From: Klebsiella pneumoniae
Lineage (GTDB): Bacteria; Pseudomonadota; Gammaproteobacteria; Burkholderiales; UBA3065
Length of the DNA: 64,000 nucleotides
Assembly: GCA_945897555.1 (NCBI GenBank)
Contig: CAMDGF010000001.1
Coordinates: forward strand, 54,866-118,865
Direction: 5' to 3'
Every line of letters starts with the position of its first letter. Within the stretch, counting starts at the first letter, position 1. A model generated the notes under the pieces. It was not told the origin of the DNA and searched no databases. It was given only the letters and a program-made list of their open reading frames with translations. A program made the position numbers and the translations under genes. Shown in pieces: positions 15,470 to 63,350 of the stretch.

Positions 15470-15478
15470 CCCCAGCCC

Positions 15479-15520
15479 GGCGCCGGTAGTTGCAAGGCGC
15501 ATGCGCCTTCGACCGGCGCC
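15479..15520. terminator. nested GC-rich hairpin between convergent genes
   Basis: GGCGCCGGT...AAGGCGCATGCGCCTT...ACCGGCGCC read directly. Confidence 0.4.
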
Positions 15521-15928: not shown

Positions 15929-16013
15929 GGATCGACTCCTCGAAGTGGGCGATGTGTGTTCTTGAGACCGCGCGACACCGCGGTCGCGTTCCCGGCGACT
16001 CAAGGATCAGGCC

Positions 16014-16874: not shown

Positions 16875-16897
16875 CGCGCACTATACTCCGCAGCCTG

Positions 16898-40973: not shown

Positions 40974-43310
40974 TTACTTGTCGGTCATCACCCAGACACC
41001 GTCCCACTCACCCTCCGGCGGGGTGGCTTTAAGCAGCTCGCAGCGCTCGATGTAGGTCTTGCTGAGCTTGTCCTTGGGGTTGTACGAAAGCGCTTTCTCG
41101 AAAGCGGCAACGGCATCGTCCCAACGGCCTGCCCGGTAGCGCGCAAGGCCTTCGGTGAAGTTGCCGAGCACGTCCATCATGTTGGGGAAGCTGTCGGGTG
41201 TGTGGTAGTCCAGCACCTCGTAGATGCTCACCGGCTGGGTCTTGCCCTTCACCACCACCAGATCGACCTCGCGCATGCGGTAGATGCCGCGCAGCTTGGC
41301 CTGCGTGAACTCGGAGATGAGGATCTTGGCCGAATACTGCTTGCAAGCGGATTCGAGACGAGCCGCAAGGTTGACGCCATCCCCGATGACGGTGAAGTCC
41401 ATGCGCTTCTTGGAGCCGATGTTGCCGCTCACCACCACATCGGTGTTGAGGCCGATGCCGATGTGGACGGGCAGCTTGCCCTCGGACTCGCGCACGACGT
41501 TCCACTCGTTGAGCTCACGGATCATCCACACCGAGGCGCGCACGGCCCGATCCTCGTCGTCGTCGTGCGCCAGCGGGATGCCAAAGCCCGCCATGATGGC
41601 GTCGCCGATGAACTTGTCGAGCATGCCACCCTCGCGGGTGATGCAGTCGACCATGATCTCAAAGTACTCGTTGAGCAGCGTCACCGTGGCCTGCGGCCCG
41701 AGCGCCTCGGTGAGCGTGGTGAAGCCGCGGATGTCGGAGAAGAGCAAGGTGGCGACCACGCTCTGCCCGCCCATCGCCTCGCCACCCTTGGCCATCAGCT
41801 GATCGGCGATGGCCGGGTCGACGTAGCGCGACATGGTCGACTTCATCCGCTTCTCGGACGAGATGTCTTCAAACATGACCATGGTGCCGAGGTGCCCGCC
41901 TTCGACGTTGGTCAGAGGCAGGATCGTTGTGTTCACCGAGACGTGCTCACCCTCGATGGTCATTTCAGCGTCCATGGTGATGTCTGGCTCGGATTCCGCG
42001 GTGAGCTTGCGCGCCTTCTCCATCACCCACGCATTGGCCTCGGTAAAGATCTCCTCGGCCTTGCGGCCGATGATGTCTTCGACACGCTGCTTGAGGATCT
42101 TCGATCCGGCGCTGTTGCAGGTGACCACCTTCTCGGTCTCATCCAGCGTGATCACGCCGTTGCTCATCGACTCGAGCATCGACTCGTTGTAGTTCTTCAT
42201 GTTCTGCACGTCGGCGAACAAGCTGGCGTTCTCCAGCGAGATCGCGATCTGCGCAGTGAATGCCTTGAGTCGGGATTCATCTTCGCCAGTGAAGACACCG
42301 TTCTTCTTGTTCAGCACCTGGGTGACGCCGATCACCTTGCCCTTCTGGTTGATGATCGGCACACAGAGGATGCTGCGGGTGAAGAACCCCGACTTCTTGT
42401 CGAATGCCGGGTTGAAGCGCAGGTCGGCGTAGGCGTGCGGGATGTTGATGGTCTTGCCGCTGCTGAACACCGCTCCGGCGATGCCCGCGGTGTTGGGCAG
42501 GCGGATCTGCATCGAGCCGAGCCCCTGCCCGACCTGCGACCACAAGGTCTGCGTCTTTTCGTCGTTGAGGAACAGCGTGCTGCGCTCGGCGTTGAGCATG
42601 CGCGTCGCCTCGGTCATCACCTTGTTGAGCAGCGAGTCGATCTTGATGTCGGAGGTGAGGTCGCTCACCACCTCGAGGAACTCGAGTTCCTGCTCACGGA
42701 TGCGTTTCATCCGCTCGACCAGCGCCATGCTCTCGAGGCCGAGCGCGCCCTGCGTGGTGATGGCCGCGAACAGTTCCTGATCCTGCTTGGTGAACTTGCC
42801 GATCTTCTTGTTCAGCGCCTGCGCAACACCGATGAGCTCGCCCTTGGCGTTGCGGATGGGCACACAGAGGATGCTTTGCGTCTTGTAGCCGGTGCGCTGA
42901 TCGACCGAGCTGTCAAAGCGCTTGTCCTTGTAGGCGTCGTGGATGATCGCCGGCTCGCCGTTATGGTAGACCCAGCCGGCGACACCACGGTCGTTCATCA
43001 GGCGGATCTCCTGCGTCAGGTTGCCCTGCGCGACCCGGCTGTAAAGCTCGTTGGTGGCCGGGTCGTTGAGGAACAGCGTGCTGCGATCGGCCTCCAGCTG
43101 TTCGGTGCTGACCTCGACCAGCAAGTGCAGGATCTGGTCGAGCGAGTCCATCGCCGCGACCTTCTCGGAGATCGACAGCAGCAGCCGCAGCAGGCTCTCC
43201 TGCCAGGTCTTGCCAACCATCGCCACCGAATAGGCGGACGAGTGTGCCGACTTGGCGGCAGGGGTCCGACTACGCGTCTTGGGGGTGCTTGGGGGCTTGG
43301 TCGTGGTCAT
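40974..43310 (-). CDS. GAF-GAF-PAS class III adenylate/guanylate cyclase with a C-terminal TPR-like tail
   Basis: 778 aa. Cyclase core FSDIRGFTTLTE...DKFIGDAIMAGFG...GDGVNLAARLES. Confidence 0.85.
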   Translation of the reverse strand: MTTTKPPSTPKTRSRTPAAKSAHSSAYSVAMVGKTWQESLLRLLLSISEKVAAMDSLDQILHLLVEVSTEQLEADRSTLFLNDPATNELYSRVAQGNLTQEIRLMNDRGVAGWVYHNGEPAIIHDAYKDKRFDSSVDQRTGYKTQSILCVPIRNAKGELIGVAQALNKKIGKFTKQDQELFAAITTQGALGLESMALVERMKRIREQELEFLEVVSDLTSDIKIDSLLNKVMTEATRMLNAERSTLFLNDEKTQTLWSQVGQGLGSMQIRLPNTAGIAGAVFSSGKTINIPHAYADLRFNPAFDKKSGFFTRSILCVPIINQKGKVIGVTQVLNKKNGVFTGEDESRLKAFTAQIAISLENASLFADVQNMKNYNESMLESMSNGVITLDETEKVVTCNSAGSKILKQRVEDIIGRKAEEIFTEANAWVMEKARKLTAESEPDITMDAEMTIEGEHVSVNTTILPLTNVEGGHLGTMVMFEDISSEKRMKSTMSRYVDPAIADQLMAKGGEAMGGQSVVATLLFSDIRGFTTLTEALGPQATVTLLNEYFEIMVDCITREGGMLDKFIGDAIMAGFGIPLAHDDDEDRAVRASVWMIRELNEWNVVRESEGKLPVHIGIGLNTDVVVSGNIGSKKRMDFTVIGDGVNLAARLESACKQYSAKILISEFTQAKLRGIYRMREVDLVVVKGKTQPVSIYEVLDYHTPDSFPNMMDVLGNFTEGLARYRAGRWDDAVAAFEKALSYNPKDKLSKTYIERCELLKATPPEGEWDGVWVMTDK

Positions 43311-43849
43311 TTGCGCATCTGTTCAATGGAGTCGCGCATCGCCTGCACGGTGTTCTTGAGTTGAAGATTCTCGGCCTCGATGCGCTGAATGGCTGATTGC
43401 ACCGTCTGGTCGCGCTCGGCGCGCTCGGCGTCGAGCCGGTCGCGCATCGACTGGGCCAGTTCGCGCATCTGCTTGAGTTCGGCAGCATACCGTTGCGTGG
43501 TGGACTGTATCGCCTCTTCGGTGGCGCGGTGTGCCGCCTCGAGCGCGTCGCGCATGGTCTGCACCGTCTCGCGCAGTTGCCGCATCTCGTCGGCTTGCGC
43601 TGCGACGGCAGCCTGCACATGACTCTCCTCCTGCCGTCGCTGCGCCTCCAGCGAGTCACGCATGGCCGCAATGGTCGCCTTGAGTTGGGCGACCTCGCGA
43701 TCGTGGCGCAACTGCAGATCTTCGAAAGACACCGTTGTGTCCGGCGCTACGCTAGTAGACACTGTTGCCCTGATGGAGGCGTGAGGATTCCTAAGATATC
43801 CGGTCGTTGCTTGATTTAGCAAGGCTCGTCCCGATCTGTCATCGGTCAC
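43307..43849 (-). CDS. coiled-coil protein with four internal (V/A)Q(A/T/S)MRD-x-(L/I)(E/D) repeats, function unknown
   Basis: The ORF stop overlaps the cyclase ATG (ATGA) and the repeat part has high GC3. The start is uncertain: GTG at 43849, with alternative GTGs at 43762 and 43732. Confidence 0.55.
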   Translation of the reverse strand: MTDDRSGRALLNQATTGYLRNPHASIRATVSTSVAPDTTVSFEDLQLRHDREVAQLKATIAAMRDSLEAQRRQEESHVQAAVAAQADEMRQLRETVQTMRDALEAAHRATEEAIQSTTQRYAAELKQMRELAQSMRDRLDAERAERDQTVQSAIQRIEAENLQLKNTVQAMRDSIEQMRK

Positions 43850-44987: not shown

Positions 44988-46133
44988 CTACTCCTCTTCG
45001 GCGACCGGTGCTGGCGCATAGCCGGTCTCCCAGTCTGGTAGACCGACCTTCACCAGCGCCGGATCGGGTCGAGGATGGTTCGATGGGAGCGTGCGAACCT
45101 CGCCACTGGTATCGACACCGCCGCGCCGCCAGAACTCCGGCCAGTCGCTTTTCATGGTCACGCCATAAAGTGGCTTGTAGGTCCCTTTGTGGCAGGTGGC
45201 GCATGCCACCTTTGGGCCATCACCCTCGGCGCTGAGGCGGTAGTCGGGAAACAAGCCCTGCAGCGGCATGAGGTAATTGACGTTGAGGCTGCGCACCATG
45301 CGGATGCCATACCAAGCGGTGATGCGCTGTGGCGAACTCTGTTCCCACCGCGCCAGCGCGCGGGTGTTGTGGCAATAGTCGCAGTTCACCCCGAGCGACT
45401 TGGCCATGTAGATCATCAGCCCGTAGGTGTGCTCGGCCTTCTTCACCGACGTCGGGTTCGACCCGGCCAGCGGTTGCGTACCCTGCACGCGGATACTGCC
45501 CGGATCGGCCGACATGAGAAAGGTGGTGAGCGGATCGTTGGGCAAGGATGAGTTGCCGACCGTCGCCACGCCGGGTTCGTCTTGGCCATCGCGGTTGCCG
45601 AGCATACGCACCTGCTGCACTGGCCGCGAGAACCAATCGCCGCTGGGCACTGCCTGGCCGCGGTGGCAGGTCCAGCAGGTGACGCCCGTCGACCCGACGT
45701 GCTGGGTCCACTCATTGTTGATCGTGCGCGTCATCTGCAGCATTCGCCGTGCCACGACCTTGGTGTATTTCTCATCGGAGGCCATGTTCTTGGTGTTATG
45801 GCAGTAGACACAGCCTTCTTCGGGCGCCACCCAAGTGACGAACGCGGCCATCACTCGTGACAACTCGTTGACGCTGAGGTCCTGGAGAACCTGGATGTTC
45901 TTGTAGCGCTCGGTGATGGTGGGTTGGCCGATGATCGGCGGGTCTGCCGGATCCTCGGGCTCAGGGATGGCGTTGACTGGCCTGAGCGCATCGACCGCAG
46001 CGGGCTTGTACATCTGCACCAACCCGGTGCCGCGAAAGCCACTCTGCACCGGTTGTGTGGATTCGGTGAGCAGGTAGGCGAAGAACAGCACGCCGACAAA
46101 GGCAGCTGCGATTGCGGCAAAGACGCGGACCAT
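44988..46133 (-). CDS. pufC: photosynthetic reaction-centre tetraheme cytochrome c subunit family protein (PufC-like), N-terminal membrane anchor
   Basis: Start at MVRVFAAIAAAFVGVLFF, preceded by AAGGAGGAGA. Four CxxCH motifs (CVYCH, CWTCH, CDYCH, CATCH) with RC-cytochrome-type spacing and the FVTWVAPEEGCVYCHN motif. Confidence 0.85.
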   Translation of the reverse strand: MVRVFAAIAAAFVGVLFFAYLLTESTQPVQSGFRGTGLVQMYKPAAVDALRPVNAIPEPEDPADPPIIGQPTITERYKNIQVLQDLSVNELSRVMAAFVTWVAPEEGCVYCHNTKNMASDEKYTKVVARRMLQMTRTINNEWTQHVGSTGVTCWTCHRGQAVPSGDWFSRPVQQVRMLGNRDGQDEPGVATVGNSSLPNDPLTTFLMSADPGSIRVQGTQPLAGSNPTSVKKAEHTYGLMIYMAKSLGVNCDYCHNTRALARWEQSSPQRITAWYGIRMVRSLNVNYLMPLQGLFPDYRLSAEGDGPKVACATCHKGTYKPLYGVTMKSDWPEFWRRGGVDTSGEVRTLPSNHPRPDPALVKVGLPDWETGYAPAPVAEEE

Positions 46134-46191
46134 CTCTCCTCCTTGCCCGCCCGGATGCACGGCGGATCTGATCGGGCCTGAGTGGCCTCTA

Positions 46192-46235
46192 TGTATAGCT
46201 ATTGTGACGATTTATGCTGTCACGTCAACATGACA
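46192..46235. promoter_or_regulatory. two PpsR/CrtJ-type palindromes 8 bp apart overlapping a candidate promoter of the pufC-like gene
   Basis: 46218-46235 is TGTCACGTCAACATGACA (perfect TGT-N12-ACA) and 46192-46209 is TGTATAGCTATTGTGACG (TGT-N12-ACG). On the minus strand, TTGACG-N17-ACAATA falls inside the two sites. Confidence 0.5.
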
Positions 46236-46243
46236 GTCAGGGC

Positions 46244-46271
46244 AAAAAGAAGGGCCTCATGCCGAGGCCCC
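46244..46271 (-). terminator. rho-independent terminator after the HiPIP gene
   Basis: The minus strand reads GGGGCCTCGGCATGAGGCCC followed by TTCTTTTT. Confidence 0.7.
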
Positions 46272-46298
46272 GGAGAGAGACGGGAATCGATGAGCCGC

Positions 46299-46616
46299 TC
46301 AGGCGTTCTTGACGGCCTTGAAGTTCTTGCACCAGCCGCCGGCCGGGGTGTGACGCTCAAAGAACGAGCATTCGGCGTACTCATCGCCCGCCTTGCCCGC
46401 CCACAACTGGCACTTGCTGCATTGCTGTTCAGCGGTCCAGCGCTTGTACTTGGCCTTGTCGACCTCCTCGGTCTTGAGCTTGAAACCCATCGATTTGGCG
46501 TACGGGTCGGCTTCGGACAGCTTCTCGCTGGCGGCCTGGGCGACCTGCGGCAGCAGGCTCGCAGCAGCCACGCCGGCCACTGCCTTGATCATGAAGGTTC
46601 TGCGGGACTGCTTCAT
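46299..46616 (-). CDS. high-potential iron-sulfur protein (HiPIP), Tat signal
   Basis: 105 aa. Twin-arginine SRRTFM. Four Cys in HiPIP spacing (CSKC...C...GGWC). Confidence 0.9.
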   Translation of the reverse strand: MKQSRRTFMIKAVAGVAAASLLPQVAQAASEKLSEADPYAKSMGFKLKTEEVDKAKYKRWTAEQQCSKCQLWAGKAGDEYAECSFFERHTPAGGWCKNFKAVKNA

Positions 46617-46664
46617 CTGGATACTCCTGACAGGTGATTAGAAAGATCGATGCGGGTGAAGCGC

Positions 46665-47273
46665 TCAGGGCCGCGGCGCGCGCACCAGCGACACACCCTC
46701 GGCACGACGGACCAGTCGCACATGAAGACGCTCGCCAGGCCTGCCGATGCGCACGCCGTCGCCACCGAAACTGAGTGCAAAGGCCGCCAGCTCGGGGCCC
46801 TCCACCAGCCTGCGCGAAGCGCTCCAGTAAAAACCCTCTGCGGTCGCCGGGAACGCATCGAGGTTGATCCGCGGGTCGCGGCAATTCACCTCGCTGATGC
46901 TCGCCAGCTCGCGCAGATTGGGAAGGCGCCAATCGGCATAGAAGAGATCGCCACGGTCGTTGACGTCGCGCACCCAAGCCTCTGCCGCAGCCCAGTCGAG
47001 GTCGGCTGGCAGGCCTCGGCAAACAGAATCACGCCACATCTGTCCGGCTGAACACCTCGCCCAGTGAAGCCCGGTGCGCCGGTCAGTCAGAGTGCCGTCG
47101 CCATGGTCCTCGAAATCGGCCAAAGTCGAACTAGGAATGAACTGTTCGCTGCAGGTTTGCGCTGCAACACCGGCCGGGTGCAAACACCCGGCCAGGCACA
47201 GCCACACAACGCCAAACCAGCTACTTGGTGTCAAAACCGATGCCCGACGGCTTGGACGGGAAGCCCTTGCCAT
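46665..47273 (-). CDS. DUF1566 (Lcl C-terminal domain) lipoprotein
   Basis: Lipobox LAGC after a hydrophobic stretch. DWRLPNLRELASI motif typical of DUF1566. The 5' end overlaps the cytochrome gene by up to 53 nt, so the start is uncertain. Confidence 0.65.
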   Translation of the reverse strand: MARASRPSRRASVLTPSSWFGVVWLCLAGCLHPAGVAAQTCSEQFIPSSTLADFEDHGDGTLTDRRTGLHWARCSAGQMWRDSVCRGLPADLDWAAAEAWVRDVNDRGDLFYADWRLPNLRELASISEVNCRDPRINLDAFPATAEGFYWSASRRLVEGPELAAFALSFGGDGVRIGRPGERLHVRLVRRAEGVSLVRAPRP

Positions 47274-47730
47274 ACTTGACCGGGATCGGTTTGGTCTGCT
47301 GAGCAGCCAAGCCCGGCTGGATCGGCAGGCCTCGATGCAGGTTCATAGCGTAGGCGTACATCGCCGTCATGTCCTTGCTCTCAAGCCCCAAGGCCTTACC
47401 TGCCTGCGGGTTCTGGATGCACCAGTTCACCATCTCGCCCCATTGCACCACCCGGTTCATGTTCTGGATGTACTTCGGGAAGGTCTGCGGGTTGGAAGCG
47501 CCCGCATCGGGATGGCAGTTGCCGCAAGCCAGACCGTTGCTGGTCATGTCAGGGTTGGACCCGTGCCAGAGGTTGTAGCCCAACTCGACCAACTCCAGCA
47601 GCTTGGCGTTCTGCTCGTCCAACTCCGCCTTGCCGAAAGGCTCACGGGCCTGGGCAGCACCGGAGGCCAACGCTGCCATCACGGCAGCGGGAATGGCGAG
47701 GGCAAGTGTTCTTTTGAATGTCGCTCTCAT
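47221..47730 (-). CDS. periplasmic monoheme c-type cytochrome
   Basis: 169 aa. Sec signal ending AAQA, a single CGNCH, then FPKY...VNWCIQNP. Confidence 0.8.
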   Translation of the reverse strand: MRATFKRTLALAIPAAVMAALASGAAQAREPFGKAELDEQNAKLLELVELGYNLWHGSNPDMTSNGLACGNCHPDAGASNPQTFPKYIQNMNRVVQWGEMVNWCIQNPQAGKALGLESKDMTAMYAYAMNLHRGLPIQPGLAAQQTKPIPVKYGKGFPSKPSGIGFDTK

Positions 47731-47747
47731 GTCGGTGTGCTCCGTGA

Positions 47748-48758
47748 TCAGGCCTTGAGGCCCTTCTTGAGGAAGGGGGTCAGAGAGTCGGCGAAGGGCT
47801 GGTACTCGACCAGCTTGCTACCGCCGGCCTTGACGTTCACCGCCAGCGTGCCCATGCCATCGACCTCGTTCCCTGGGTCGGCGCGGTTCATCTGCGAACC
47901 GGGATAGGCCAACTTGACCGGCGGATAAGGCCAAGGCCACGAGGTGCTCATGGCGCCGATCGAGGTCATGTTGCCGATCTTGTTGTAGAGCGTCTGGTGC
48001 ACATGGCCGTGGATCGAGGTGAAGTTCTCGAAGCGCGACAGGATCTCGCGGATCTGCGGACCGTCCACGGTCTGGAAATTCCAGCGCGGGTAGTAGTCCC
48101 ACAGGGGCGAGTGGGTAAAGGTGACGATGGGCGTGTCCGAGGAAAGCTTGGCGACGTCTTTCTTCAGCCAGTCCAGTTGCTCGGCACCCACCCCCCACAA
48201 GCCGCCGATCGGGCCTTCGAGCATCTCCATGGCTTCCATACGCTGGCGCGGGGACATCTGCTTGGCGGTCCAGAAATCCGGCACCAGGATGGAGTTCATG
48301 CCGATAAAGTGCACGCCCTTGTGGTCGAACGACCAGTAATCACGGCCGAACATGCCCTTCCACGCATCGCCCATGTCGACGTACCAGTCGTGTTCACCGG
48401 GGATGACCACCAGCTTGGTGTCGAGAGCAGCCAGCAGCTTCTTGCCCTTGGCGAGCTGATCCTCGGTACCGTTCTGGGCGATGTCGCCACCGTAAAGCAC
48501 GAAGTCTGGCTTGATCGCCATGTTGTTGACCTGCTCGACGGCATCCTCGAGCTGGCGATCGAACTTGTGGTCCTCGCCGCTGTAGAGGTGCGAATCGGTG
48601 ATCATTGCGAAACGGAACGGCGAGACCTTCTTGCCCGGCTGGGCGTGGGCCAGGTCGAATACGCCGAGGTTGATGCCCGCAGCGCTGCCGACGATGGTCG
48701 ACAGCCCGGCCTTGCCGGTGAGCTGCAGGAATTCGCGTCTGTCCTTCTTGTGATCCAT
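47748..48758 (-). CDS. Tat-exported calcineurin-type metallophosphoesterase
   Basis: Start at MDHKKDRREFLQ (twin-arginine motif), preceded by AAGGAGA. Motifs DSH, GGD, GEHD, THSP and HGHVH. Confidence 0.8.
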   Translation of the reverse strand: MDHKKDRREFLQLTGKAGLSTIVGSAAGINLGVFDLAHAQPGKKVSPFRFAMITDSHLYSGEDHKFDRQLEDAVEQVNNMAIKPDFVLYGGDIAQNGTEDQLAKGKKLLAALDTKLVVIPGEHDWYVDMGDAWKGMFGRDYWSFDHKGVHFIGMNSILVPDFWTAKQMSPRQRMEAMEMLEGPIGGLWGVGAEQLDWLKKDVAKLSSDTPIVTFTHSPLWDYYPRWNFQTVDGPQIREILSRFENFTSIHGHVHQTLYNKIGNMTSIGAMSTSWPWPYPPVKLAYPGSQMNRADPGNEVDGMGTLAVNVKAGGSKLVEYQPFADSLTPFLKKGLKA

Positions 48759-48865
48759 AACCTTCTCTCCTTGATTCCTCACGTCGTTCTTTTAAAAAAA
48801 CCATGCCCCGGTGGACGAAAAGGCCTGTTGTTATGGTTTTGAAGGGGGTGTGTACCCTAAGGGTC

Positions 48866-48941
48866 GTTCCGTGGCCTATGGAACATAGGTTAGCAATTTC
48901 ATATTGTCCATAAGAGATTGATTCCAATGCGATTCTGGAAT
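48866..48941. promoter_or_regulatory. two dyad-symmetric elements in the divergent soxY / metallophosphoesterase control region
   Basis: GTTCC-N9-GGAAC at 48866-48884 and ATTCCA-N9-TGGAAT at 48921-48941, inside an AT-richer 297-bp intergenic region. Confidence 0.25.
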
Positions 48942-49055
48942 GCGTCTAGACACAAGGGCCGAGCGACTCCCCGTCAAGCGGGCTCGACGACTGGTCTGGG
49001 AACGGCAACCGCAGGAACTGCCTCCAACCCTGACACGACAAAGGCTTGCCAGACG

Positions 49056-49529
49056 ATGTCTGCCCTCTCTTCTGCCGCAACGAGCGCCTCCCGCCGCCGC
49101 GCGCTGCAAATCCTCGCCACGCTGGCGGGTGCCATCGGTGCCGCTTGGGCATCCGCCGCTCTGGCCGGACTGCCTCGGCGCAGCTTTGAGCCCGAACCGT
49201 TCGACGTGGCTCTGCGCAAGCTGGGCGTCACCGCGGCCGAGCCCTCTTCGGCGATCGAGTTGCTGCTGCCCGACGTCGCTGAGGACGGCGCCGCTGTGCA
49301 GATGAGCCTGAGCACCACGTTGGCGGCCCGCCGCGCCCTTTTGCTGGTGCGGCGTAACCGCATACCCCTGGTGGCTGAATTCGCGTTCCCGCCCGGCGCG
49401 CTGCCATTCGTCGCCACGCGCATCAAGTTGGCCGAAGATTCCGAGGTGCTGGCCTTGGTCGAAGCCGACGGACGTTGGTATTCAGCCAGCCGCCAGGTCA
49501 AAGTGACGCTGGGGGGTTGCGGTGGTTAG
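49056..49529 (+). CDS. soxY: sulfur carrier protein SoxY (Tat signal, C-terminal GGCGG)
   Basis: Start at MSALSSAATSASRRRALQ. PDVAEDGAAV motif. The protein ends ...VKVTLGGCGG. Confidence 0.85.
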   Translation: MSALSSAATSASRRRALQILATLAGAIGAAWASAALAGLPRRSFEPEPFDVALRKLGVTAAEPSSAIELLLPDVAEDGAAVQMSLSTTLAARRALLLVRRNRIPLVAEFAFPPGALPFVATRIKLAEDSEVLALVEADGRWYSASRQVKVTLGGCGG

Positions 49530-49537
49530 GGGGCGAT

Positions 49538-49849
49538 ATGCCTGAAGCGATGCGCATCCGCGCGGTGGAAAAAGACGGGCTGGTGGATGCTCGGGTGCAG
49601 ATCCGTCACGACATGGAGTCGGGCTCGCGCCGAAACGAGTCTGGCGAGGTGGTGCCAGCCTGGTACATCACCGGATTCACGGTGGAGGTGGACGGGCGCG
49701 AGGTGTTCGCCGCGCAACTCGGTCCCGGTGTGTCGCGCAATCCGCTGCTGCACTTTCGCTTCAGGGACGCCCGCAAGGGCCAGATGTTGGTGGCGCGCTG
49801 GCAGGACAGCCGTGGCGAGACGCGCGAAGACCGGGGGGTTATCGATTGA
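49538..49849 (+). CDS. soxZ: SoxZ, partner of SoxY
   Basis: 103 aa starting 8 nt after soxY. IRHDMESGSRRNESGEVVPAWYI matches the SoxZ signature H-x-M-E-(S/T)-G. Confidence 0.85.
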   Translation: MPEAMRIRAVEKDGLVDARVQIRHDMESGSRRNESGEVVPAWYITGFTVEVDGREVFAAQLGPGVSRNPLLHFRFRDARKGQMLVARWQDSRGETREDRGVID

Positions 49850-50591
49850 CCGGCTCGAAGCGCGCGCCGACCACGATGCCAAGCTCGTAAAGGATCCACA
49901 GAGGGATGGCCATCATCAGCTGCGAGATGACATCCGGCGGAGTAAAGATGGCGCCGATGACAAAGGCACCGACGATGACGTAAGGCCGCCACTCGCGCAG
50001 CTTGGCCGGTGTGACGATGCCAGCCGCGATGAGCACCACCACCAGCACCGGCACCTCGAAAGTCACGCCAAAAGCGATGAACAATCCCAGCACGAAGTCG
50101 AAGTAAGCGGCGATGTCGGTCATCACCGCCACGCCCTCGGGCGCAAAGCCGGTGATGAAGCCGAACACCATGGGCAACACGGCGTAATAGGCGAACGCCA
50201 TGCCGACGAAGAACAGCAGCGTACTGGCCACCACCAGTGGCCCCACCCAGCGCTTCTCGTGGGCATACAAGCCTGGCGCCACGAACGCCCAGACCTGGTA
50301 GAGCACCCAGGGCAAGGCGACCAGCAGAGCCGCCAGCCCGGTGACCTTCACCGGCACAAAGAATGGAGTGACCACACCGGTGGCGATCATGCTGGTGCCT
50401 GCCGGCATCTTGGCCAGCAAGGGTTGCGCCAGCCAGGTGTAGAGATCCTGCGCGAAAGGGAACAGGCAAACGAACACCACCAACAGGCCCACCACGCCAC
50501 GCAGCAGTCGGCTGCGCAACTCGATGAGGTGCTCCACCAGCGACATCTCCTGCGGGACGGCATCCGCCCCCGATGGCAGCGGATCGGTCAT
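49839..50591 (-). CDS. tatC: twin-arginine translocase subunit TatC
   Basis: 250-aa, six-TM protein (SLVEHLIELRSRLL). The 3' end overlaps the soxZ 3' end by 11 nt. Confidence 0.9.
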   Translation of the reverse strand: MTDPLPSGADAVPQEMSLVEHLIELRSRLLRGVVGLLVVFVCLFPFAQDLYTWLAQPLLAKMPAGTSMIATGVVTPFFVPVKVTGLAALLVALPWVLYQVWAFVAPGLYAHEKRWVGPLVVASTLLFFVGMAFAYYAVLPMVFGFITGFAPEGVAVMTDIAAYFDFVLGLFIAFGVTFEVPVLVVVLIAAGIVTPAKLREWRPYVIVGAFVIGAIFTPPDVISQLMMAIPLWILYELGIVVGARFEPVNR

Positions 50592-51067
50592 GTCGAGGTC
50601 GTCACGGTGCGCTTGCGGCCGCGCGGGGCGCCCGTCTTGGAGGACGCAGTGGCCGCCTCGGGGGCCGCGCCGGCGTCCGGTGTCGCCAGCGGAGCAGCCT
50701 CCTTGCGCGGTGCGCGCCGTTTGGGTTTGACCGGCGCATCGACCGGGGCCGGTGGAACAGAGGCTCCGGGCAAGGGCAAGGCGACGTCATCGAGTGTCGA
50801 GCGGACAGCGTCCTCGGCGGACGCGACGATGCTATCGGCCTCACCCGACACCTCGCGCGCCCGCGCCTCGATCTCGTCGCGCAAACGCCGCAACTCGGAC
50901 AGCTCGACCTCGCGGTCGATCTCGTCGCGCACGTGGTCGATAAAGCGCCGCGCCCGGCCGACCCAACGGCCGACGTCGCGCGCCAGTTTGGGCAGACGTT
51001 CAGGGCCGAGCACCAACAGCGCAGCCACGCCGATGACGAGCAGCTCGCTGAAGCCGATGTCGAACAT
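50588..51067 (-). CDS. tatB: twin-arginine translocase subunit TatB
   Basis: MFDIGFSELLVIGVAALLVLGPERLP. ATGA overlap with tatC. Confidence 0.9.
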   Translation of the reverse strand: MFDIGFSELLVIGVAALLVLGPERLPKLARDVGRWVGRARRFIDHVRDEIDREVELSELRRLRDEIEARAREVSGEADSIVASAEDAVRSTLDDVALPLPGASVPPAPVDAPVKPKRRAPRKEAAPLATPDAGAAPEAATASSKTGAPRGRKRTVTTST

Positions 51068-51081
51068 GCCGCGGCGCGCGG

Positions 51082-51300
51082 CTAGTGCTGGCCGGGCCTG
51101 CCGTCGGTGCGGCGCGACTCCCCTTCGAGGGTGCGCTCGGCCGGCGGGGCATCAGGCGGATCGCCCTCACTTACGCCTTTCTTGAAGCCCTTCACCGCCT
51201 CGCCGAGGTCGGTGCCGACGCCCCGCAGCTTCTTGGTGCCGAACACCAGCACGATGACCAGCAGGACGATAAGCCAATGCCAGATGCTGAAAGAACCCAT
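51082..51300 (-). CDS. tatA: twin-arginine translocase subunit TatA
   Basis: 72 aa ([25 protein letters not shown]). Confidence 0.9.
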
Positions 51301-57035: not shown

Positions 57036-59006
57036 TCAGGCCGTGGCCGGCACAGCCTCCTGCAGGCGACGCACGCTGGCCTCGATACCGGGGGCATCGA
57101 GGCCCTCCATGGCCAGCAAGGTGGCGTGGTCGCCATGATCGATGAAACGGTCGGGCAGGCCAAGGTGGTGGATCGGCACCATGGGGATGCGGCTGCCGAG
57201 CGCCACCAGACCTTCGGCGCAGGCCGAGCCAGCCCCGCCCTGCACCACATGCTCCTCGACCGTGACCAGCAGGTCGTGGTGATGGGCCGCCCACGCCAGG
57301 GTGTCGAGGTCAAGCGGCTTGACGAAGCGCATGTTGATCACCGTGGCGTCGAGCGCCTCAGCCGCCTTGAGCGCTGGCGAGACCATCGACCCGAAGGCGA
57401 GGATGGCGACACGGGCGCCTGCTGCCGCGACGCCTGTGCGCAACACCTCCGCCTTGCCGACCGGGAGCGGCTCGAGCGTGTCGGTGGCGTCGATGCCGGC
57501 GCCCGCGCCACGTGGATAGCGCACTGCGCTCGGCCCGTCGTAGGCGAGCCCTGTACTGAGCATGCGCCGGCACTCGAGCTCGTCCTTGGGCGCCATCACC
57601 AACATGTGCGGGATGCAACGCAGGAAGCTGTAGTCGTAGATGCCGGCATGGGTGGCGCCATCGGCGCCGACCAACCCGGCACGATCGAGCGCGAACATCA
57701 CCGGCAGCTTCTGCAAAGCGACATCGTGGATGAGCTGGTCGTAGGCGCGCTGCAGGAAGGTGCTGTAGATCGCAACCACGGGCTTCAGGCCTTCGCAGGC
57801 GATGCCAGCGGCAAACGTCACCGCGTGCTGCTCGGCGATGCCAACGTCGTAGTAGCGATCAGGGAAGCGCTCGGCGTACTCGACCATGCCGGAGCCCTCG
57901 CGCATGGCTGGCGTGATGGCCACCACGCGCGGATCGGCACTCGCAGCGTCGCACAACCAACGGCCGAACACCTGCGAATAGGTCGCCTTGGCCGGCGCGG
58001 CGGGCTTGATGCCAGCCGCCGGATCGAACTTGCCAGGGCCGTGGTAGAGGATGGGATCGGCCTCGGCACGGTCGTAGCCAGCCCCCTTGCGCGTCACCAC
58101 ATGGAGGAACTGCGGGCCCTTGAGCCGGCGCAGGTTGATCAGCGTCGGCACCAGTGCATCGAGGTCGTGTCCGTCGATCGGGCCGACATAGTTGAAACCG
58201 AACTCCTCGAACAGGGTGCCGGGGGTGACAAAACCCTTGGCAGTCTCTTCGACGCGGTGCGCGAGTTCGCGCATCGATGGCAGGCCGCTGAGCAGTTGTT
58301 TGCCGAGCTCCTTGGTGCTGGTGTAGAGCCGGCTCGAGAGCAGCCGGGTGAGGTACTTGGAGAGCGCACCCACCGGCGGACTGATCGACATCTCGTTGTC
58401 GTTGAGGATCACCAGCAGGTCGATGTCGCGCTCGATGCCGGCATTGTTGAGCGCCTCGAAAGCCAGCCCGGCACTCATGGCGCCATCGCCGATCACGGCG
58501 ACGTGCCGACGCCGCCCCGAGCCCTCATGCTCACCCTTCTGCCGCGAAGCGATGGCCATGCCCAATGCAGCCGAGATGCTGGTCGATGAGTGGGCGGTGC
58601 CAAAGTGGTCGTACTCACTCTCACAACGCCGCGGAAAGCCCGACAGCCCTTTGAGCTGACGCAGGCTGCCCATGCGCTCGCGGCGACCGGTGAGGATCTT
58701 GTGCGGGTAGCTCTGATGCCCGACATCCCAGATCAGGCGGTCATACGGCAGGTTGAAGACGTGGTGGATGGCCACCGTGAGTTCCACAGTGCCCAGATTC
58801 GATGACAGATGCCCCCCGGTGCTCGCCACCGAGCGCAGCAGGAACTCGCGCAGTTCGGCAGACAGCTGCTTGAGCTGCGCACGACTCAGCGCGCGCACCT
58901 GCGCCGGCGCGTTGACCTTGTCCAGGACCGATTCCAGATCATCCATGGGCCCGAATTGTGCGCCATCCAGGCGAGTGAATGTTGCGGCGCGATCCATCGT
59001 GTTCAT
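57036..59006 (-). CDS. dxs: 1-deoxy-D-xylulose-5-phosphate synthase
   Basis: 656 aa. [12 protein letters not shown] and IGDGAMSAG (ThDP) motifs. The start overlaps the puhE stop (ATGA). Confidence 0.92.
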
Positions 59007-59803
59007 GTCACCTCCATACCCAGGCGATCGCGCTCACGACGGTCACGCCGCGAGCCCATGCCCCAATGCCAAAGCCGCTCGAAGGGAATCGGCAGCACCA
59101 TGAACCAATGCTCGAGAATGGCAAGGCTCAGCAACATGGCTGCCAGCGATGCGGCTACCGGCTGAAAGTCGCCGGCACGCTGGTTCCAGGCGAACTCCCA
59201 GCCTGCCATCGCGGCCGCCGTGGCAAGCGTCACCACCACCGGGAACAGCGGGTTGATCGGCTTGCGCTGAAAGTAGGTGGGCAGGTAGCGCAGATGCAGC
59301 GGCAAGAAGGTCTCCGAAAGATTGCGCACGCCGAGGAAGACATTGAGCTTGGCGCTCTGGCGCATCACCCAGAAGATCAGGTAGGTGCACAGACCGACAC
59401 GGTTACTGCCGCCGGCTGTGGCGAGGAATACACCCAGGCCGAGCACCAGCAGGGCGATCTCGTGGTGCAGCACCACCTGCAGGGCAAAGCCCGCCCGCTG
59501 CCAGCCGCGCGAGCCGATCGGCAGGTCGATGCGCCGCGGCCCGGTGACATACCCGAGCAGAAAAGCGATCTCCTGCCATGCCCAGATGAGGAGAGCGCAG
59601 CTGAACGCACAATAGGCACCGGCCTCGGTGGCCATATCGCGCGATGCAGCCAAGCCCCAGAAGGCAGCCACCGCGAGCCAGCTGGCGAGCGTGAACGTGA
59701 GGCGGTAGGTGCTGCGTGGCAAACGGTTGAGCCAGATGATGACGCCGGTGCCGATCCACCATGCGAACAGGGTGAACACGGCGGGAAGCAAGAGGGTGCT
59801 CAT
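59003..59803 (-). CDS. puhE: putative photosynthetic complex assembly protein PuhE
   Basis: Start at [21 protein letters not shown] 266-aa multi-TM protein located after acsF, as in other photosynthesis gene clusters. Confidence 0.8.
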
Positions 59804-59846
59804 CGCCCGGGTATCCTCGCCGTCGGTGCGGCCACGCGACAGACCG

Positions 59847-60932
59847 TCACCACACCGGCTCGAGGCGCGGGTCGGCGGGCAGCTCGCGCGAGCGCACCGG
59901 AAGGAAGTACATGCGGACGAAGGTCGCGGCGGCACCCAGCGCAAGACCGGCGCGGCGCACTTGGTTCCACGGTCCACCCACCCTGCGCGCCTCGTCCATC
60001 GCCTCGGCGATCAGGCGCATCTTCTCCAGCCCGGCGCGGAAGCGTGCGTCTTCGAAGTTGAGCGTATCCGGGAACACCTGTTGTGAGATCTCCCGGGTGA
60101 CGCGGAACACCTCCATGTCGTATTCGGTCGGATCGAGCCCGAGCGACTTGTGGAACACCGGCCGCGCGTGGTCACGCACATACATGGTGGCGAACACCGC
60201 CAGGGTAAAGAAGCGGATCCAGAGGCGGTTGAGGCCACGGGTCAGGCTCGGGTCCGCGCGCATCAGCAGGGCGAACGCCTCGCCATGCCGGAACTCATCG
60301 TTGCACCACTCGCGGAACCACCGGAAGATCGGGTGGAAGCACAGCTCAGGGTGCCGTTCGATCTTTCGGTAGATGGTGATGTAACGCGCGTAGCCGATCT
60401 TCTCCGAAAGGTAGGTCGCGTAGAAGATGTACTTGGGCTTGAAGTAGGTGTACTTCTTGGCCTTGACCAGAAAGCCCAGATCGACCCCGATACCGAAATC
60501 CTTGAGCCACTGGTTGATGAAACCGGCGTGGCGCGATTCGTCGCGCGCCATGTAACCGAACAGGTCCTTCATGTCGGGGTTCTTGACCCGCCGACGGATC
60601 TCGGCGTAGAGCACACAGCCAGAGAACTCCGCCGTGACCGAACTGATCATGAAATCAACGAATTCCTGATAGAGCTCGTCGGGCAAGTGCGAGTAGTCCT
60701 GCCCGAGCATGTCGACCGGCCGCTCGAAGTGGCCGTTGTTGGGGTCGTCCCTGAACTCGGCCATCAGCGCATCCCACTGCTCGCGGATCGAACCGATGTC
60801 GATGCGGTCCATGGCGTCGAAATCGGTGGTGTAGAAACGCGGATCGAGGATGGTGTTCTTCTGCGCCTGGCGCGTCGAATCGTTGATGCTCTCAGGCGTC
60901 TCGAGCTGGCGGGTCTCGGTCATGGCGTTCAT
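59847..60932 (-). CDS. acsF: aerobic Mg-protoporphyrin IX monomethyl ester oxidative cyclase
   Basis: Start at MNAMTETRQ (361 aa). Two di-iron E..E/D-x-x-H motifs (DESRH, DEFRH). Confidence 0.92.
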
Positions 60933-61303
60933 GGCTGCTGGCCTCCGTTGGGCACGCTGGACACGGCGTTGGATGGTCGTGCGGCCTTGGGCCGCGGATA
61001 GTTGCGTGAGGTTGAGAAGCGGCGCTCGGAGAAGCTCACCTCGTAGAGCAGGTCGAGTTCGAAACGGGCGAGGGCAAAGGTCTTGAGGCGCTGCCACCAC
61101 GATGCACGCGAAACCGTGGCACGACGTTCAACCGCGTAACGCTCACCCCAGTTGATGCGGGTGGGCGGGTTATGCACCAGCACCTCGTCGCCAGGGCCGA
61201 TCTCGACCCCTTTGAGGATGACGTGCGCGTAGCAGTCGTCGGCGGTATGCGCCAACTCGACACGACATGGCACTGTGGATACGCGAGGGTCACGGTCGCT
61301 CAT
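60929..61303 (-). CDS. small conserved-position ORF between puhC and acsF (124 aa), function unknown
   Basis: ATGA overlaps at both ends (with the puhC stop and the acsF start). GC-rich third codon positions. Confidence 0.65.
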
Positions 61304-61869
61304 CGCGCGGCCTTTGCAACGTGCGCCCCAGGCTGCGGCTCGACCAGCATCCGCGCGAACGCGCCGGCATTGGTGTGGCCGAAGGCTGTGAGTTCGACGC
61401 GCTGCCCGGTGGCCAGGTCGGTGAGCACGAGCAGACCGGCGTCGAGCGAGAGCTGGAAGGGCTCGGCCACACCCTTGCCAAGCCGCCGACGCTCACGCGC
61501 CATGCCACGCAGGATGCCGCGGATGAAACCGGCCTCACCGACCACGCGATACACCTCGATGCCGCTGTCGGCATCGAGCACACGGACCGATTTGTCCCCG
61601 GCGTCGAGAAAGCGCAACTTGCGCTGGCCGACGGTCTTGAGCACCGGTGGATCTACGGTGGCGACGGTCATCGGCACGCTTGCAGAAGCCAGCGTCGCCC
61701 CCCCAGCACTGTGAAGCTGCAGACCCAGCCAGAAACCGAGCGCGGGAAGGACGACGACCGCTGCCACCAGCCAGAGTGGCATCACCCTGACGATCGGATA
61801 GCGCGCGGCGAGGCGCGAACGCCAGCCACCGTTCGCGTCCACGCCCGCAGCAGCGGCCAGGCGCGTCAT
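61300..61869 (-). CDS. puhC: photosynthetic complex assembly protein PuhC
   Basis: ATG at 61869 overlaps the puhB stop. One TM helix, then LRFLDAGDKSVRVLDADSG..GFIRGILRGMARERR, typical of PuhC. An alternative ATG lies at 61782. Confidence 0.7.
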   Translation of the reverse strand: MTRLAAAAGVDANGGWRSRLAARYPIVRVMPLWLVAAVVVLPALGFWLGLQLHSAGGATLASASVPMTVATVDPPVLKTVGQRKLRFLDAGDKSVRVLDADSGIEVYRVVGEAGFIRGILRGMARERRRLGKGVAEPFQLSLDAGLLVLTDLATGQRVELTAFGHTNAGAFARMLVEPQPGAHVAKAAR

Positions 61870-62564
61870 GCCGGTTCTGCCCCGGCCAGAGCGTCGCCGG
61901 TGCCGCGCTTTGGCCTGACCGTCGCGGCCGCTCGGGCCGGCGCGGCTGCTGAGCGTTGCTGCACGACCGACCACGCTTGCCCGAGCAGCGTCGCCACCCG
62001 GCTGGCGTCTGGCAGACAGCGCAGCGCCGGCTCGGGTTGGGTGATGCGCCACGGGCGCGCATGTGGCCACAGGTGCGGGTAGGCGATGCGCTGGCCATCG
62101 GTCAGACGCAGACAGATGTCCCCGGCACCCTGCGCCTGCTGGCGCAGATCGGCTGCGGCCACCTGGCGCAAAGGGATGTTGTAAGTGATACCCAGCACCA
62201 TGCCGATGCGCATCACCACTCGCTTGTCAGTGAGCGTGTACAGCGTGGTGCGCGAGACCGCGACGGCCAGCCCGAAGAGCATGGCCAGCCCGATCAGCGG
62301 CAAGGGCGCGATCTTGAGTGTGGCGATGAGTGCCTCTATCGGGGTCGCGCCATCATGCCAATCCGCGATCAGCTTCCATGCCAGCAGAAGGCCGAAGTAG
62401 GCTGCAACGGCACGGACATGGAAGACTTCGCGCGCCACCAGCCCGATGTCGGGCGCACCCTGCCACAACAGGGTCTCACCGGCCGGAAGTCGCTCTGGCA
62501 GCCCGGGCTCGGGCTCCCAGCCATGCTCGGGGCCGGAGAAATGCTTGTGGTCGAGCCCGCTCAA
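61866..62564 (-). CDS. puhB: photosynthetic complex assembly protein PuhB
   Basis: LPAGETLLWQGAPD motif and two TM helices. The proposed TTG start at 62564 overlaps the puhA stop (TTGA). Start uncertain. Confidence 0.7.
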   Translation of the reverse strand: MSGLDHKHFSGPEHGWEPEPGLPERLPAGETLLWQGAPDIGLVAREVFHVRAVAAYFGLLLAWKLIADWHDGATPIEALIATLKIAPLPLIGLAMLFGLAVAVSRTTLYTLTDKRVVMRIGMVLGITYNIPLRQVAAADLRQQAQGAGDICLRLTDGQRIAYPHLWPHARPWRITQPEPALRCLPDASRVATLLGQAWSVVQQRSAAAPARAAATVRPKRGTGDALAGAEPA

Positions 62565-63328
62565 ATCAGCGGCTCCGCACGGCCCGGCTCGGCGTAGAGC
62601 AGACCACCGCCGAGGTAACCGAAGATCTTTTCCTCTTCGAGCCAAGTGACCTGATCCGGGCTGGCAGTGCGGGGGATGCCGGCGATCTGGCCGCCGAGCA
62701 CAGCACGCACCGTGACACGGTCGCGCTCGACCCGGCACAGGGTCATCGGCACCAGCACGCGATGGCCACCGGCATCGATCTCGACGTAGCGGAACAGGTG
62801 CTCCGAGCGATCGACCCAGAGGTCGGTCACCTTGCCACCCACCACGCCGTCGGCGCCCACCACGTCAAAGCCACGCGGGTCGGTCTCGCCATGATCGATG
62901 GCAAAGCCCTCTGGCTCGGCGACGCGCAAGGGCACGATGCGGACCGCGCCCTCGTAGGTGGTGTCAGGGCGATCGGCACGGGCTGTCCAGGCGCCAGGGC
63001 CGATACCGTCGTACATCGGGTTACCGGTCGGCTCGATCGGTGCGCCGGCAAAGCCTGCGATCGGCTCTGCTGCCGGTGCCGGCTGCTCCCAGTCACGCAT
63101 GTGCGGCGCGAGGTACTCGCTGCCATCCTGCATGACATAGCGCTTGGGCTTGGGCATGGCGATGATGCCGGGGTCTCGGCGACCATTGCGCAGGCCCGAA
63201 TCGAGGGGAAAGCCTTCGCGCTTGCTCTCGTAGATCAGGTAATAGCAGAGGCCAAAAAAGAACACCCAGAACATGTAGATGGCCAGTTGGGCCACATCGA
63301 AGTAGCCGAGGATCGCTCCGTTTCCCAT
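62561..63328 (-). CDS. puhA: photosynthetic reaction centre H subunit
   Basis: 255 aa (FDVAQLAIYMFWVFFFGLCYYLIYESKREGFPL). Confidence 0.92.
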   Translation of the reverse strand: MGNGAILGYFDVAQLAIYMFWVFFFGLCYYLIYESKREGFPLDSGLRNGRRDPGIIAMPKPKRYVMQDGSEYLAPHMRDWEQPAPAAEPIAGFAGAPIEPTGNPMYDGIGPGAWTARADRPDTTYEGAVRIVPLRVAEPEGFAIDHGETDPRGFDVVGADGVVGGKVTDLWVDRSEHLFRYVEIDAGGHRVLVPMTLCRVERDRVTVRAVLGGQIAGIPRTASPDQVTWLEEEKIFGYLGGGLLYAEPGRAEPLI

Positions 63329-63350
63329 TTGTCTTCTCCTTGTCTGCCGG

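Follow-up and report, generated by a model that had tools for sequence, protein, structure and literature searches.

What process could unite, within a few kilobases of DNA, a sulfur carrier, a phosphoesterase-like enzyme, a small cytochrome and an apparent relative of the photosynthetic reaction-centre cytochrome? The question is raised by a 64,000-nucleotide stretch of contig CAMDGF010000001.1 (assembly GCA_945897555.1, positions 54,866 to 118,865 of the forward strand; GTDB lineage Burkholderiales, UBA3065), referred to throughout as the window. On its minus strand an operon is transcribed in the order metallophosphoesterase (MPE), monohaem cytochrome c, DUF1566 protein, high-potential iron-sulfur protein (HiPIP) and PufC-like tetrahaem cytochrome, with a soxYZ pair diverging from it and the tatCBA genes beyond. 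An initial annotation had described these ten genes from the letters of the DNA, and all ten were recovered in the same positions from the list of open reading frames (ORFs) of the window and from Pfam and NCBIfam profile scans of that list, for which scores are given here in bits against the curated cut-off; the locus is identical in public assemblies of an uncultured Burkholderiales bacterium. The answer towards which the evidence tips, by a modest amount, is that the locus encodes a periplasmic module, complete in itself, that draws electrons from a reduced sulfur compound, with a branch formed by HiPIP and a PufC paralogue leading to the photosynthetic membrane.

Whether the genes form a unit at all can be judged from their neighbourhood in other genomes. 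A scan of one genome per species (185,579 species genomes) found MPE relatives in 491 species, from which the best 80 loci were fetched; the window proteins were mapped onto these by tblastn, and classification was limited to the 52 species-level loci with enough flanking sequence (individual loci are cited below by number, e.g. L094). The genes for MPE, cytochrome, DUF1566 protein, HiPIP and PufC-like protein are kept together in 43 of the 52, with HiPIP adjoining the PufC-like gene in each of these; all seven genes, soxYZ included, occur in 22 loci, the five genes with soxYZ not nearby in 21, and the core trio of MPE, cytochrome and DUF1566 protein alone in nine. The order MPE, cytochrome, DUF1566, HiPIP, PufC-like, with or without SoxY and SoxZ ahead of HiPIP, recurs in both Beta- and Gammaproteobacteria and is identical in Burkholderiales, Chromatiaceae and Sedimenticolaceae, and this conservation across two classes rules out chance co-localisation. 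Neighbourhood conservation had been proposed in the initial annotation as a check on its grouping, and it bears out both the five-gene unit and the inclusion of soxYZ, which in most seven-gene loci lies within the operon, between DUF1566 and HiPIP. Seven- and five-gene forms are found in Burkholderiales (Polynucleobacter, Limnohabitans, Hydrogenophaga, Rhizobacter, Rubrivivax), Chromatiaceae (Thiocapsa, Thiohalocapsa, Halochromatium) and Sedimenticolaceae, and the core-only form in Gallionellaceae, Steroidobacteraceae and some Burkholderiaceae; sulfur oxidisers predominate among the host lineages. In about 38 of 81 loci a divergent gene for a LysR regulator precedes that of the MPE.

The chemistry of the unit is suggested by its second gene (47221-47730, minus strand; 169 aa), whose product carries a Sec signal ending in AQA. 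Judged by profile and alignment, this monohaem cytochrome c consists of one domain, homologous to the haem domain with His/Cys ligation that is catalytic in TsdA and SoxA: it scores 44.4 bits on the SoxA/TsdA cytochrome profile PF21342 (cut-off 27), and alignments pair it with domain 1 of Rhodovulum SoxA (E 1.6e-6) and of Allochromatium vinosum TsdA (E 8.7e-6). Its Cys104, in the motif NWCIQNP, is aligned to the cysteine of ...gdCfers... in TsdA, a haem ligand that is essential for catalysis (PMC6879331), and from this alignment Cys104 is a candidate distal haem ligand. Both C69-x-x-C72-H73 and C104 are invariant among 76 locus-derived and 26 database homologues, and when an AlphaFold model of the cytochrome (predicted local distance difference test, pLDDT, of 74) was compared with the PDB using Foldseek, the matches at E < 2 were exclusively chains of TsdA, TsdBA and SoxA. 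The family is sizeable, with 676 members detected, and the 120 of them that were listed are all single-domain proteins of 149-182 aa, nearly all of 165-176; they are labelled "thiosulfate dehydrogenase" in IMG and "hypothetical" in NCBI. The protein is neither a full-length SoxA, reaching 40.9 bits on TIGR04484 against a cut-off of 110 and covering model positions 6-105 of 212, nor a dihaem TsdA, having one CXXCH motif in its 169 residues and no second, electron-exit haem domain, and family scans of the window found no SoxX-like gene within or adjoining the operon. The sulfur link drawn in the initial annotation is strengthened by this cytochrome with its invariant cysteine, and also by two of the fetched loci: in L094 an fccA-like gene and fccB stand immediately upstream of MPE, cytochrome, DUF1566, soxY and soxZ, and in L086 an FccB homologue is encoded upstream.

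The first gene of the operon (47748-48758, minus strand; 336 aa) encodes the MPE, in which a Tat (twin-arginine translocation) motif, DRREFL, can be read. Its one Pfam match is PF00149, and its matches in NCBIfam are solely weak ones, to cAMP phosphodiesterases. The metal-binding residues D55, H57, D92, H123, H216, H252 and H254 are invariant, as are all the binuclear metallophosphoesterase motifs (DxH, GD, H, GHxH), which places the protein in that superfamily. Motif III (residues 121-124) reads GEHD, as against GNHD in GpdQ; it is invariant in a 23-sequence alignment and puts an extra carboxylate at the second metal site. As far as sequence comparison goes, the MPE family is very well conserved and is the most conserved component of the operon, the best 120 database matches having identities of at least 62%. 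In the structure search, the folds closest to the MPE model were GpdQ, Rv0805 and purple acid phosphatases, with 5'-nucleotidase-family entries appearing from rank 22 on; the AlphaFold model is poor over a conserved stretch of 60 residues at the C-terminus (WPWPYPP...). The possibility that the MPE is an orthologue of SoxB was considered and is ruled out by the Pfam and NCBIfam scores, by the fold search and by the lack of a match to the 5'-nucleotidase C-terminal domain: the two proteins have a superfamily and a Tat signal in common, yet the MPE is not a SoxB.

The third member of the core is a DUF1566/Lcl_C protein (46665-47273, minus strand; 86 bits on PF07603), which is 202 aa long as the longest ORF and 180 aa long with the start at 47207 chosen by gene callers, and whose gene follows that of the cytochrome in 75 of 81 loci. 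The initial annotation had described it as a lipoprotein with a lipobox. An LAGC lipobox is indeed present in the window protein, but the pattern occurs in just 7 of 74 homologues, is missing from the closest relatives (L012-L014), and the lipoprotein assignment is rejected for the family. The usual N-terminus of the homologues is an ordinary Sec signal with an AxA site followed by (E/Q)Q-x-C-D, and since the lipobox is rare and this arrangement common, cleavage of the window protein at VAA|QTC appears likelier than lipidation. Conserved features of the family are a cysteine pair, a DWRLP...EL motif and an EF-hand-like DGDGT(V/L)TD loop. This loop, more broadly (D/N)GDGT(V/L)TD, lies at about residues 55-65, ahead of the Lcl_C domain; it resembles the calcium loop of EF-hands and gives a weak match to calmodulin.

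Which carrier would serve these enzymes is a question with two sides, one in the window and one in the relatives. In the window, soxY (49056-49529, plus strand; PF13501) encodes a protein with the Tat motif SRRRAL and a GGCGG C-terminus that scores 118 bits on TIGR04488 (cut-off 125), and soxZ (49538-49849, plus strand; PF08770) encodes its partner, at 93 bits on TIGR04490 (cut-off 76). SoxZ has no signal peptide and is presumed to be exported together with SoxY, as in other Sox systems; the view that every product of the locus carries an export or anchor signal of its own, put forward in the initial annotation, fails for SoxZ. The same arrangement of soxYZ, divergent from MPE, is found in L011-L013 and L098. 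Where SoxY is encoded inside the operon (L038-L059 and others), it ends in GGCA, GGCV, GGCS or GGCR (GGCGA in two loci) instead of GGCGG and scores 86-136 bits on TIGR04488, and the SoxZ partners pass their own model. Because the arm of these in-operon copies is altered to GGC plus one residue, dedicated partner enzymes are suggested. Thiocapsa bogorovii BBS has three SoxYZ pairs, one of them formed by LT988_21280 ("hypothetical" in PGAP) and LT988_21285, with the operon as a whole presumably spanning LT988_21265-21295, and also holds canonical SoxB and two SoxXA pairs (PMC10892978); since canonical SoxXAB and SoxYZ are thus present in the same genome, the operon with its own carrier is, in Thiocapsa, an addition to canonical Sox and not a replacement of it. 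Homologues of the window SoxYZ were found by word-indexed search in its own lineage only, at 61-99% identity; the next match, at 40%, sits in a cluster of SoxX-like, SoxA-like, soxY and soxZ genes.

The two remaining genes suggest where the electrons might go. The HiPIP (46299-46616, minus strand; 105 aa) belongs to PF01355 (49.4 bits against 22), has the Tat motif SRRTFM and retains its four cluster cysteines throughout 56 homologues; its nearest solved structure is 1HLQ (E 3e-10), presumably the HiPIP of Rhodoferax fermentans. The PufC-like protein, encoded by the last gene of the operon (44988-46133, minus strand; 381 aa), is a member of the PufC family by PF02276 (E 3e-120), by NF040706 (415 bits against 150) and by its four CXXCH motifs; its N-terminus is a hydrophobic membrane anchor without a cysteine, and it matches over its full length the cytochrome subunits of solved reaction centre-light-harvesting 1 complexes (best 7xxf_C, E 5e-96). 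Residues M94, M131, H145 and M240 are candidate axial (sixth) ligands, at spacings that presumably correspond to those of Blastochloris viridis PufC. The gene is placed after that of HiPIP and not after pufM, outside a puf operon. In a neighbour-joining tree, 49 operon-linked PufC-like copies from both classes split from four puf-operon PufC proteins with a bootstrap of 100/100, identity being 50% between the two groups and 61% within the operon-linked one, and L028, L031, L037 and L051, the four loci where both are visible, carry a puf-operon pufC beside pufLM as well as the operon-linked copy. The genome paper for T. bogorovii (PMC10892978) also tabulates, without comment, a further "RC cytochrome c subunit" that is encoded elsewhere than in the puf operon. 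The operon-linked proteins of Chromatiaceae are 800-1400 aa long: a lipobox and the tetrahaem domain are followed by a long coiled coil, and an OmpA domain (PF00691, E 1e-20) forms the C-terminus; we came across no account, in the searchable literature, of a reaction-centre-type cytochrome anchored to the cell wall. On these comparisons the PufC-like protein is best described as a paralogue of the reaction-centre cytochrome subunit, and public annotation names all of the operon-linked proteins reaction-centre cytochrome subunit or PufC. The initial annotation had likewise taken it for the reaction-centre-bound tetrahaem subunit, a view made doubtful by the separate clade, the coexistence with true pufC and the OmpA fusions.

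Two further observations on this protein may be recorded. The coiled coil of the Chromatiaceae form is built from RLDQERTALQQQLAVVRxQRDA repeats (L044 at about 14032-17030, L050, L047, L054 and others). In L098, a metagenome contig of the same lineage as the window, the PufC-like gene is present at 3975-5122 as two ORFs of 151 and 220 aa, for which a frameshift, a pseudogene or an assembly error are all possible.

That the host is a phototroph can be read from the window itself. The genes puhE, acsF, puhC, puhB, puhA and lhaA (PUCC) occupy 59003-63959 on the minus strand (ORF limits) and score, in that order, 259 bits on TIGR03055, 466 on TIGR02029, 102 on TIGR03054, 213 on NF040894 and 309 on TIGR01150, with lhaA matching PF03209; they form the edge of a photosynthesis cluster about 10.2 kb from the MPE start codon, with dxs (57036-59006) directly downstream of that edge and the PUCC/lhaA gene continuing to the end of the window. 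Since puhA, puhB, puhC, acsF and puhE are all present, the host is an anoxygenic phototroph with a type II reaction centre, as the initial annotation had supposed. The proximity is not peculiar to this genome: in six other species the operon lies no more than 10 kb from puf or puh genes, with pufLM within that distance in L028, L031, L032, L037 and L051 and acsF and puhE in L014. In L028 and L032 the operon stands at the border of the photosynthesis cluster with unrelated genes on its other side, and an operon embedded within the cluster is ruled out for these two by that edge position. In some lineages it is the puh end of the cluster that lies near the operon and in others the puf end, which suggests that the two came together more than once. 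Lineages not known as phototrophs, namely Gallionellaceae and Steroidobacteraceae with their core-only loci, lack the extension formed by HiPIP and the PufC-like protein, phototrophy being judged here by organism names only and metagenome-assembled genomes (MAGs) labelled Sedimenticolaceae being a possible exception.

Taken together, these parts can be arranged into a working scheme in which the substrate, the catalytic roles of the MPE and the DUF1566 protein, the sequence and direction in which electrons pass and their final acceptor are all inferred. The core would consist of a Tat-exported binuclear metallohydrolase (the MPE), a single-domain TsdA/SoxA-type His/Cys cytochrome and the DUF1566 protein. 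The cytochrome would catalyse the two-electron oxidative S-S coupling of a sulfur anion, as do TsdA, whose natural partner in A. vinosum is HiPIP, and SoxAX (PMC6879331), with the cysteine of the associated SoxYZ carrier as the likely acceptor of the coupled sulfur. The two electrons would pass to the operon HiPIP and from there to the membrane-anchored tetrahaem PufC paralogue; their most likely sink would be the photo-oxidised reaction centre, on which the paralogue might dock or for which it might serve as a membrane-bound relay, a high-potential oxidase being the alternative. The oxidised terminal group, whether borne by the carrier or by a free polythionate, would be hydrolysed off by the MPE after the coupling, a step modelled on that of SoxB and here filled by an unrelated member of the superfamily. 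A bolder version of this scheme would see in the locus a new lithotrophic donor pathway for anoxygenic photosynthesis, in which the MPE with its GEHD motif, a "half-TsdA" and the DUF1566 protein work with a private SoxYZ on a sulfur species that canonical Sox does not handle, and in which HiPIP and a second PufC replace or supplement the reaction-centre subunit; we offer this version tentatively, as a possibility well short of probable.

It is worth setting out what weighs against the module proposed here, most of which concerns its two ends. At the input end, no SoxB entry was found among the top 50 fold matches of the MPE, its best folds being phosphodiesterases and its likeness to SoxB ending at the level of the superfamily, and the AlphaFold model from which these matches derive is only moderate (pLDDT 66, predicted template modelling score 0.70). 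The soxYZ genes are absent from the neighbourhood in 30 of 52 loci, and because of this the core may act on a free substrate; the window's own GGCGG-type SoxYZ could be either the operon carrier or a general Sox carrier; and with canonical SoxXAB and SoxYZ present in T. bogorovii, thiosulfate may not be the substrate of the operon. In Gallionella the order is LysR, MPE, cytochrome, DUF1566, doxX, katG, and a core beside doxX and katG under a LysR regulator would also fit a role in stress or detoxification. At the output end, binding of the PufC-like protein to a reaction centre is hypothetical and not established, because the protein belongs to a separate paralogous group, has a coiled coil and an OmpA domain attached to it in Chromatiaceae, and is present in Sedimenticolaceae-labelled MAGs. 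Finally, no account of the operon, of an association of DUF1566 with HiPIP or of a second PufC clade was found by searching the full-text literature, subscription journals being mostly outside its coverage; the initial annotation's statement that it knew of no system with this composition agrees with that search.

Much of this bears on the destination of the electrons, for which two other accounts have to be considered. The PufC-like protein could after all be the reaction-centre-bound cytochrome subunit in this organism, either as its sole pufC or as an alternative subunit swapped in under sulfur-oxidising conditions. In Rubrivivax and Rhodoferax, electrons are known to reach the reaction centre from HiPIP by way of a bound tetrahaem cytochrome, and the full-length homology of about 50% to bound PufC proteins, the four CXXCH motifs, the similar N-terminal anchor, the NF040706 score far above its cut-off, the puhA and other photosynthesis genes some 10 kb away and the pufLM genes that the operon abuts in five other species are all as this account would have it. 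It is nevertheless a doubtful one, given the fully supported separation of the linked copies from the four puf-operon proteins, the possession of both in L028, L031, L037 and L051, the second subunit gene outside the puf operon of T. bogorovii, the 800-1400 aa Chromatiaceae forms with coiled coil and OmpA domain and the occurrence of the paralogue in Sedimenticolaceae-labelled MAGs; the puf operon of the window genome, for its part, lies outside the window and may or may not contain a pufC of its own. Alternatively, the same oxidising module might feed a respiratory oxidase of cbb3 or aa3 type through its HiPIP and PufC-paralogue branch, in which case the operon would sit near photosynthesis genes only by reason of a common ecology or of co-transfer. 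Some bacteria use HiPIP as an electron donor to oxidases, the host probably lives as an aerobic phototroph in fresh water and would then have oxidases as its main sink, the operon is flanked by housekeeping genes in Chromatiaceae, and in one Sedimenticolaceae MAG the full five-gene operon lies 7 kb from petABC and beside SCO1/SenC, with no photosynthesis genes in 20 kb. What makes this account unlikely is that the operon has come to lie beside puf or puh cluster ends independently in several lineages, that the HiPIP and PufC-like extension is missing precisely in lineages not known as phototrophs, and that no oxidase gene is linked to the operon among the loci with annotated flanks.

The identity of the substrate admits two further departures from the proposed module. 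In one, the route is minimal and free of SoxYZ: the half-TsdA would make tetrathionate from thiosulfate with HiPIP as acceptor, the MPE would hydrolyse tetrathionate or another polythionate, and soxYZ would be a mere neighbour. The best structural matches of the cytochrome are, after all, TsdA chains, its IMG label is "thiosulfate dehydrogenase", A. vinosum TsdA naturally works with HiPIP (PMC6879331), T. bogorovii is without tsdA (PMC10892978), and soxYZ is not nearby in 30 of the 52 loci. Against this stand a cytochrome of one CXXCH and 169 aa that lacks the second haem domain by which electrons leave TsdA, and the placing of soxYZ within the operon in many genomes of both classes, its carrier arm altered, which an idle neighbour would hardly account for, so that we regard the route as rather improbable. 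The other departure abandons sulfur, with the core trio acting on Fe(II), Mn(II), an arsenic or phosphorus oxyanion, or peroxide or another stress species, and with an MPE site that is redox-active or hydrolyses phosphoesters. Such a role would suit the core-only form common in iron-oxidising Gallionellaceae, beside doxX and katG under LysR, as well as the extra carboxylate that GEHD brings to the second metal site and the phosphodiesterases and purple acid phosphatases that are the nearest folds of the MPE. It is very improbable all the same: PF21342-type His/Cys haem is so far known from sulfur enzymes only (PMC6879331), SoxYZ and FccAB are linked to the operon, and no porin, multihaem outer-membrane cytochrome or Cyc2-type gene was seen beside the operon in the loci with annotated flanks.

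Turning to the layout of the locus itself, the successive gaps along the operon measure 17 nt, 13 nt (or none, the genes overlapping), 48 nt and, between HiPIP and the PufC-like gene, 165 nt. This last gap holds a GC-rich, terminator-like hairpin with a T-run directly 3' of the HiPIP stop codon (46271-46251, minus strand) and, between hairpin and PufC-like gene, a promoter-like site (46201-46228, minus strand), both of them consensus matches only; they may indicate attenuated read-through into the PufC paralogue or its own transcription. The region between the divergent MPE and soxY genes (48759-49055; 297 bp) is AT-rich, is presumed to be a shared control region and contains a promoter-like consensus match on the minus strand at 48910-48882. 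The tatC, tatB and tatA genes (49839-51300, minus strand; TIGR00945, TIGR01410, NF002813), convergent with soxZ, encode the housekeeping Tat translocase. They had been named as flanking the locus in the initial annotation, and a part for them in the system is rejected, as they are adjacent to the operon in L011-L014, L098 and the window only, a lineage-specific and incidental neighbourhood. In L014, tatA and tatB lie some 0.7-0.9 kb upstream of MPE, and tblastn found neither soxYZ nor tatC. Small conserved ORFs beside the core in Gallionellaceae and upstream of MPE were also considered; they have no Pfam match and no CXXCH motif, lie opposite a helicase or LysR gene and are treated as spurious antisense frames.

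Elsewhere in the window, an NAD-linked formate dehydrogenase operon (5403-10942, plus strand) comprises an fdsB-like gene, an fdsA-like gene for the molybdopterin subunit and fdsD, and adjoins a gene for a LysR/ModE-like regulator with a PBP_like domain (3655-4743, minus strand). One ORF at 2404-3576 (plus strand) joins a fatty-acid desaturase domain to a fragment of an ISL3-family DDE transposase and may be an insertion remnant or an artefact of ORF calling. Downstream of the operon, a GAF-GAF-PAS adenylate/guanylate cyclase of 778 aa (40974-43849, minus strand) is preceded by a protein of 151-180 aa with MRDSLEA-type repeats, and this pair is kept in that position in the closest relatives only.

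Should the proposed module prove correct, periplasmic sulfur oxidation would gain a further set of enzymes, in which a single-domain, cysteine-ligated cytochrome is combined with a metallohydrolase that is not SoxB, and the module would provide a function for a very well-conserved orphan metallophosphoesterase family and for a DUF1566 protein. It would also draw attention to a widespread PufC paralogue that is now annotated as the reaction-centre subunit, with consequences for the reading of "pufC" matches in genomes and metagenomes. The module could explain how inorganic electrons are fed to HiPIP and the reaction centre in the abundant freshwater phototrophic Burkholderiales (Limnohabitans, Polynucleobacter and relatives of Rubrivivax) and in purple sulfur bacteria, and the presence of the operon in cultured strains (Thiocapsa roseopersicina/T. 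bogorovii, T. marina, Thiohalocapsa halophila) makes the hypothesis directly testable.

How, then, does the locus compare with what is known? All of its components come from known families and the proposed logic is that of Sox and Tsd; the operon itself appears to be undescribed. With the Sox system of SoxXA, SoxB and SoxYZ it has in common a periplasmic location, a SoxYZ carrier with a cysteine arm, a cytochrome domain of SoxA/TsdA type with a candidate His/Cys haem, a hydrolase that is exported by Tat and belongs to the binuclear metallophosphoesterases, and the proposed delivery of electrons to a soluble high-potential carrier. It differs in having no SoxX or SoxCD within the operon, in a cytochrome reduced to a single domain of 169 aa, in a hydrolase of GpdQ/Rv0805 type, in a SoxY that, when encoded in the operon, ends in GGC plus one residue, and in the invariant or frequent addition of DUF1566 protein, HiPIP and PufC paralogue. 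The initial annotation's contrast with the canonical soxXABCD set stands as regards the parts, with an MPE unlike SoxB beyond the superfamily and no SoxX, and is tempered by T. bogorovii, where the operon exists in addition to canonical SoxXAB and SoxYZ. TsdA, acting with TsdB and with HiPIP as acceptor in Allochromatium vinosum, is closest to the cytochrome in fold and sequence, with the candidate ligand cysteine conserved and HiPIP likewise the probable acceptor; TsdA, however, is a dihaem protein of about 250 aa, whereas the operon cytochrome corresponds to its first domain only and always accompanies the MPE and the DUF1566 protein. The chain from HiPIP to PufC in Rubrivivax gelatinosus and Rhodoferax fermentans likewise pairs a HiPIP with an anchored PufC-family cytochrome of four CXXCH motifs in a host with a type II reaction centre, but the operon cytochrome is a paralogue additional to pufC and encoded apart from the puf operon, bears a coiled coil and an OmpA domain in Chromatiaceae, occurs also in lineages not known as phototrophs and is grouped with candidate substrate-oxidising genes. 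Lastly, the photoferrotrophy operon PioABC of Rhodopseudomonas palustris TIE-1 offers the precedent of a lithotrophic donor operon with its own HiPIP (PioC) directed towards the reaction centre; compared with it, the operon described here dispenses with the outer-membrane porin and decahaem cytochrome, would employ a chemistry of the sulfur type and adds a paralogue of PufC.

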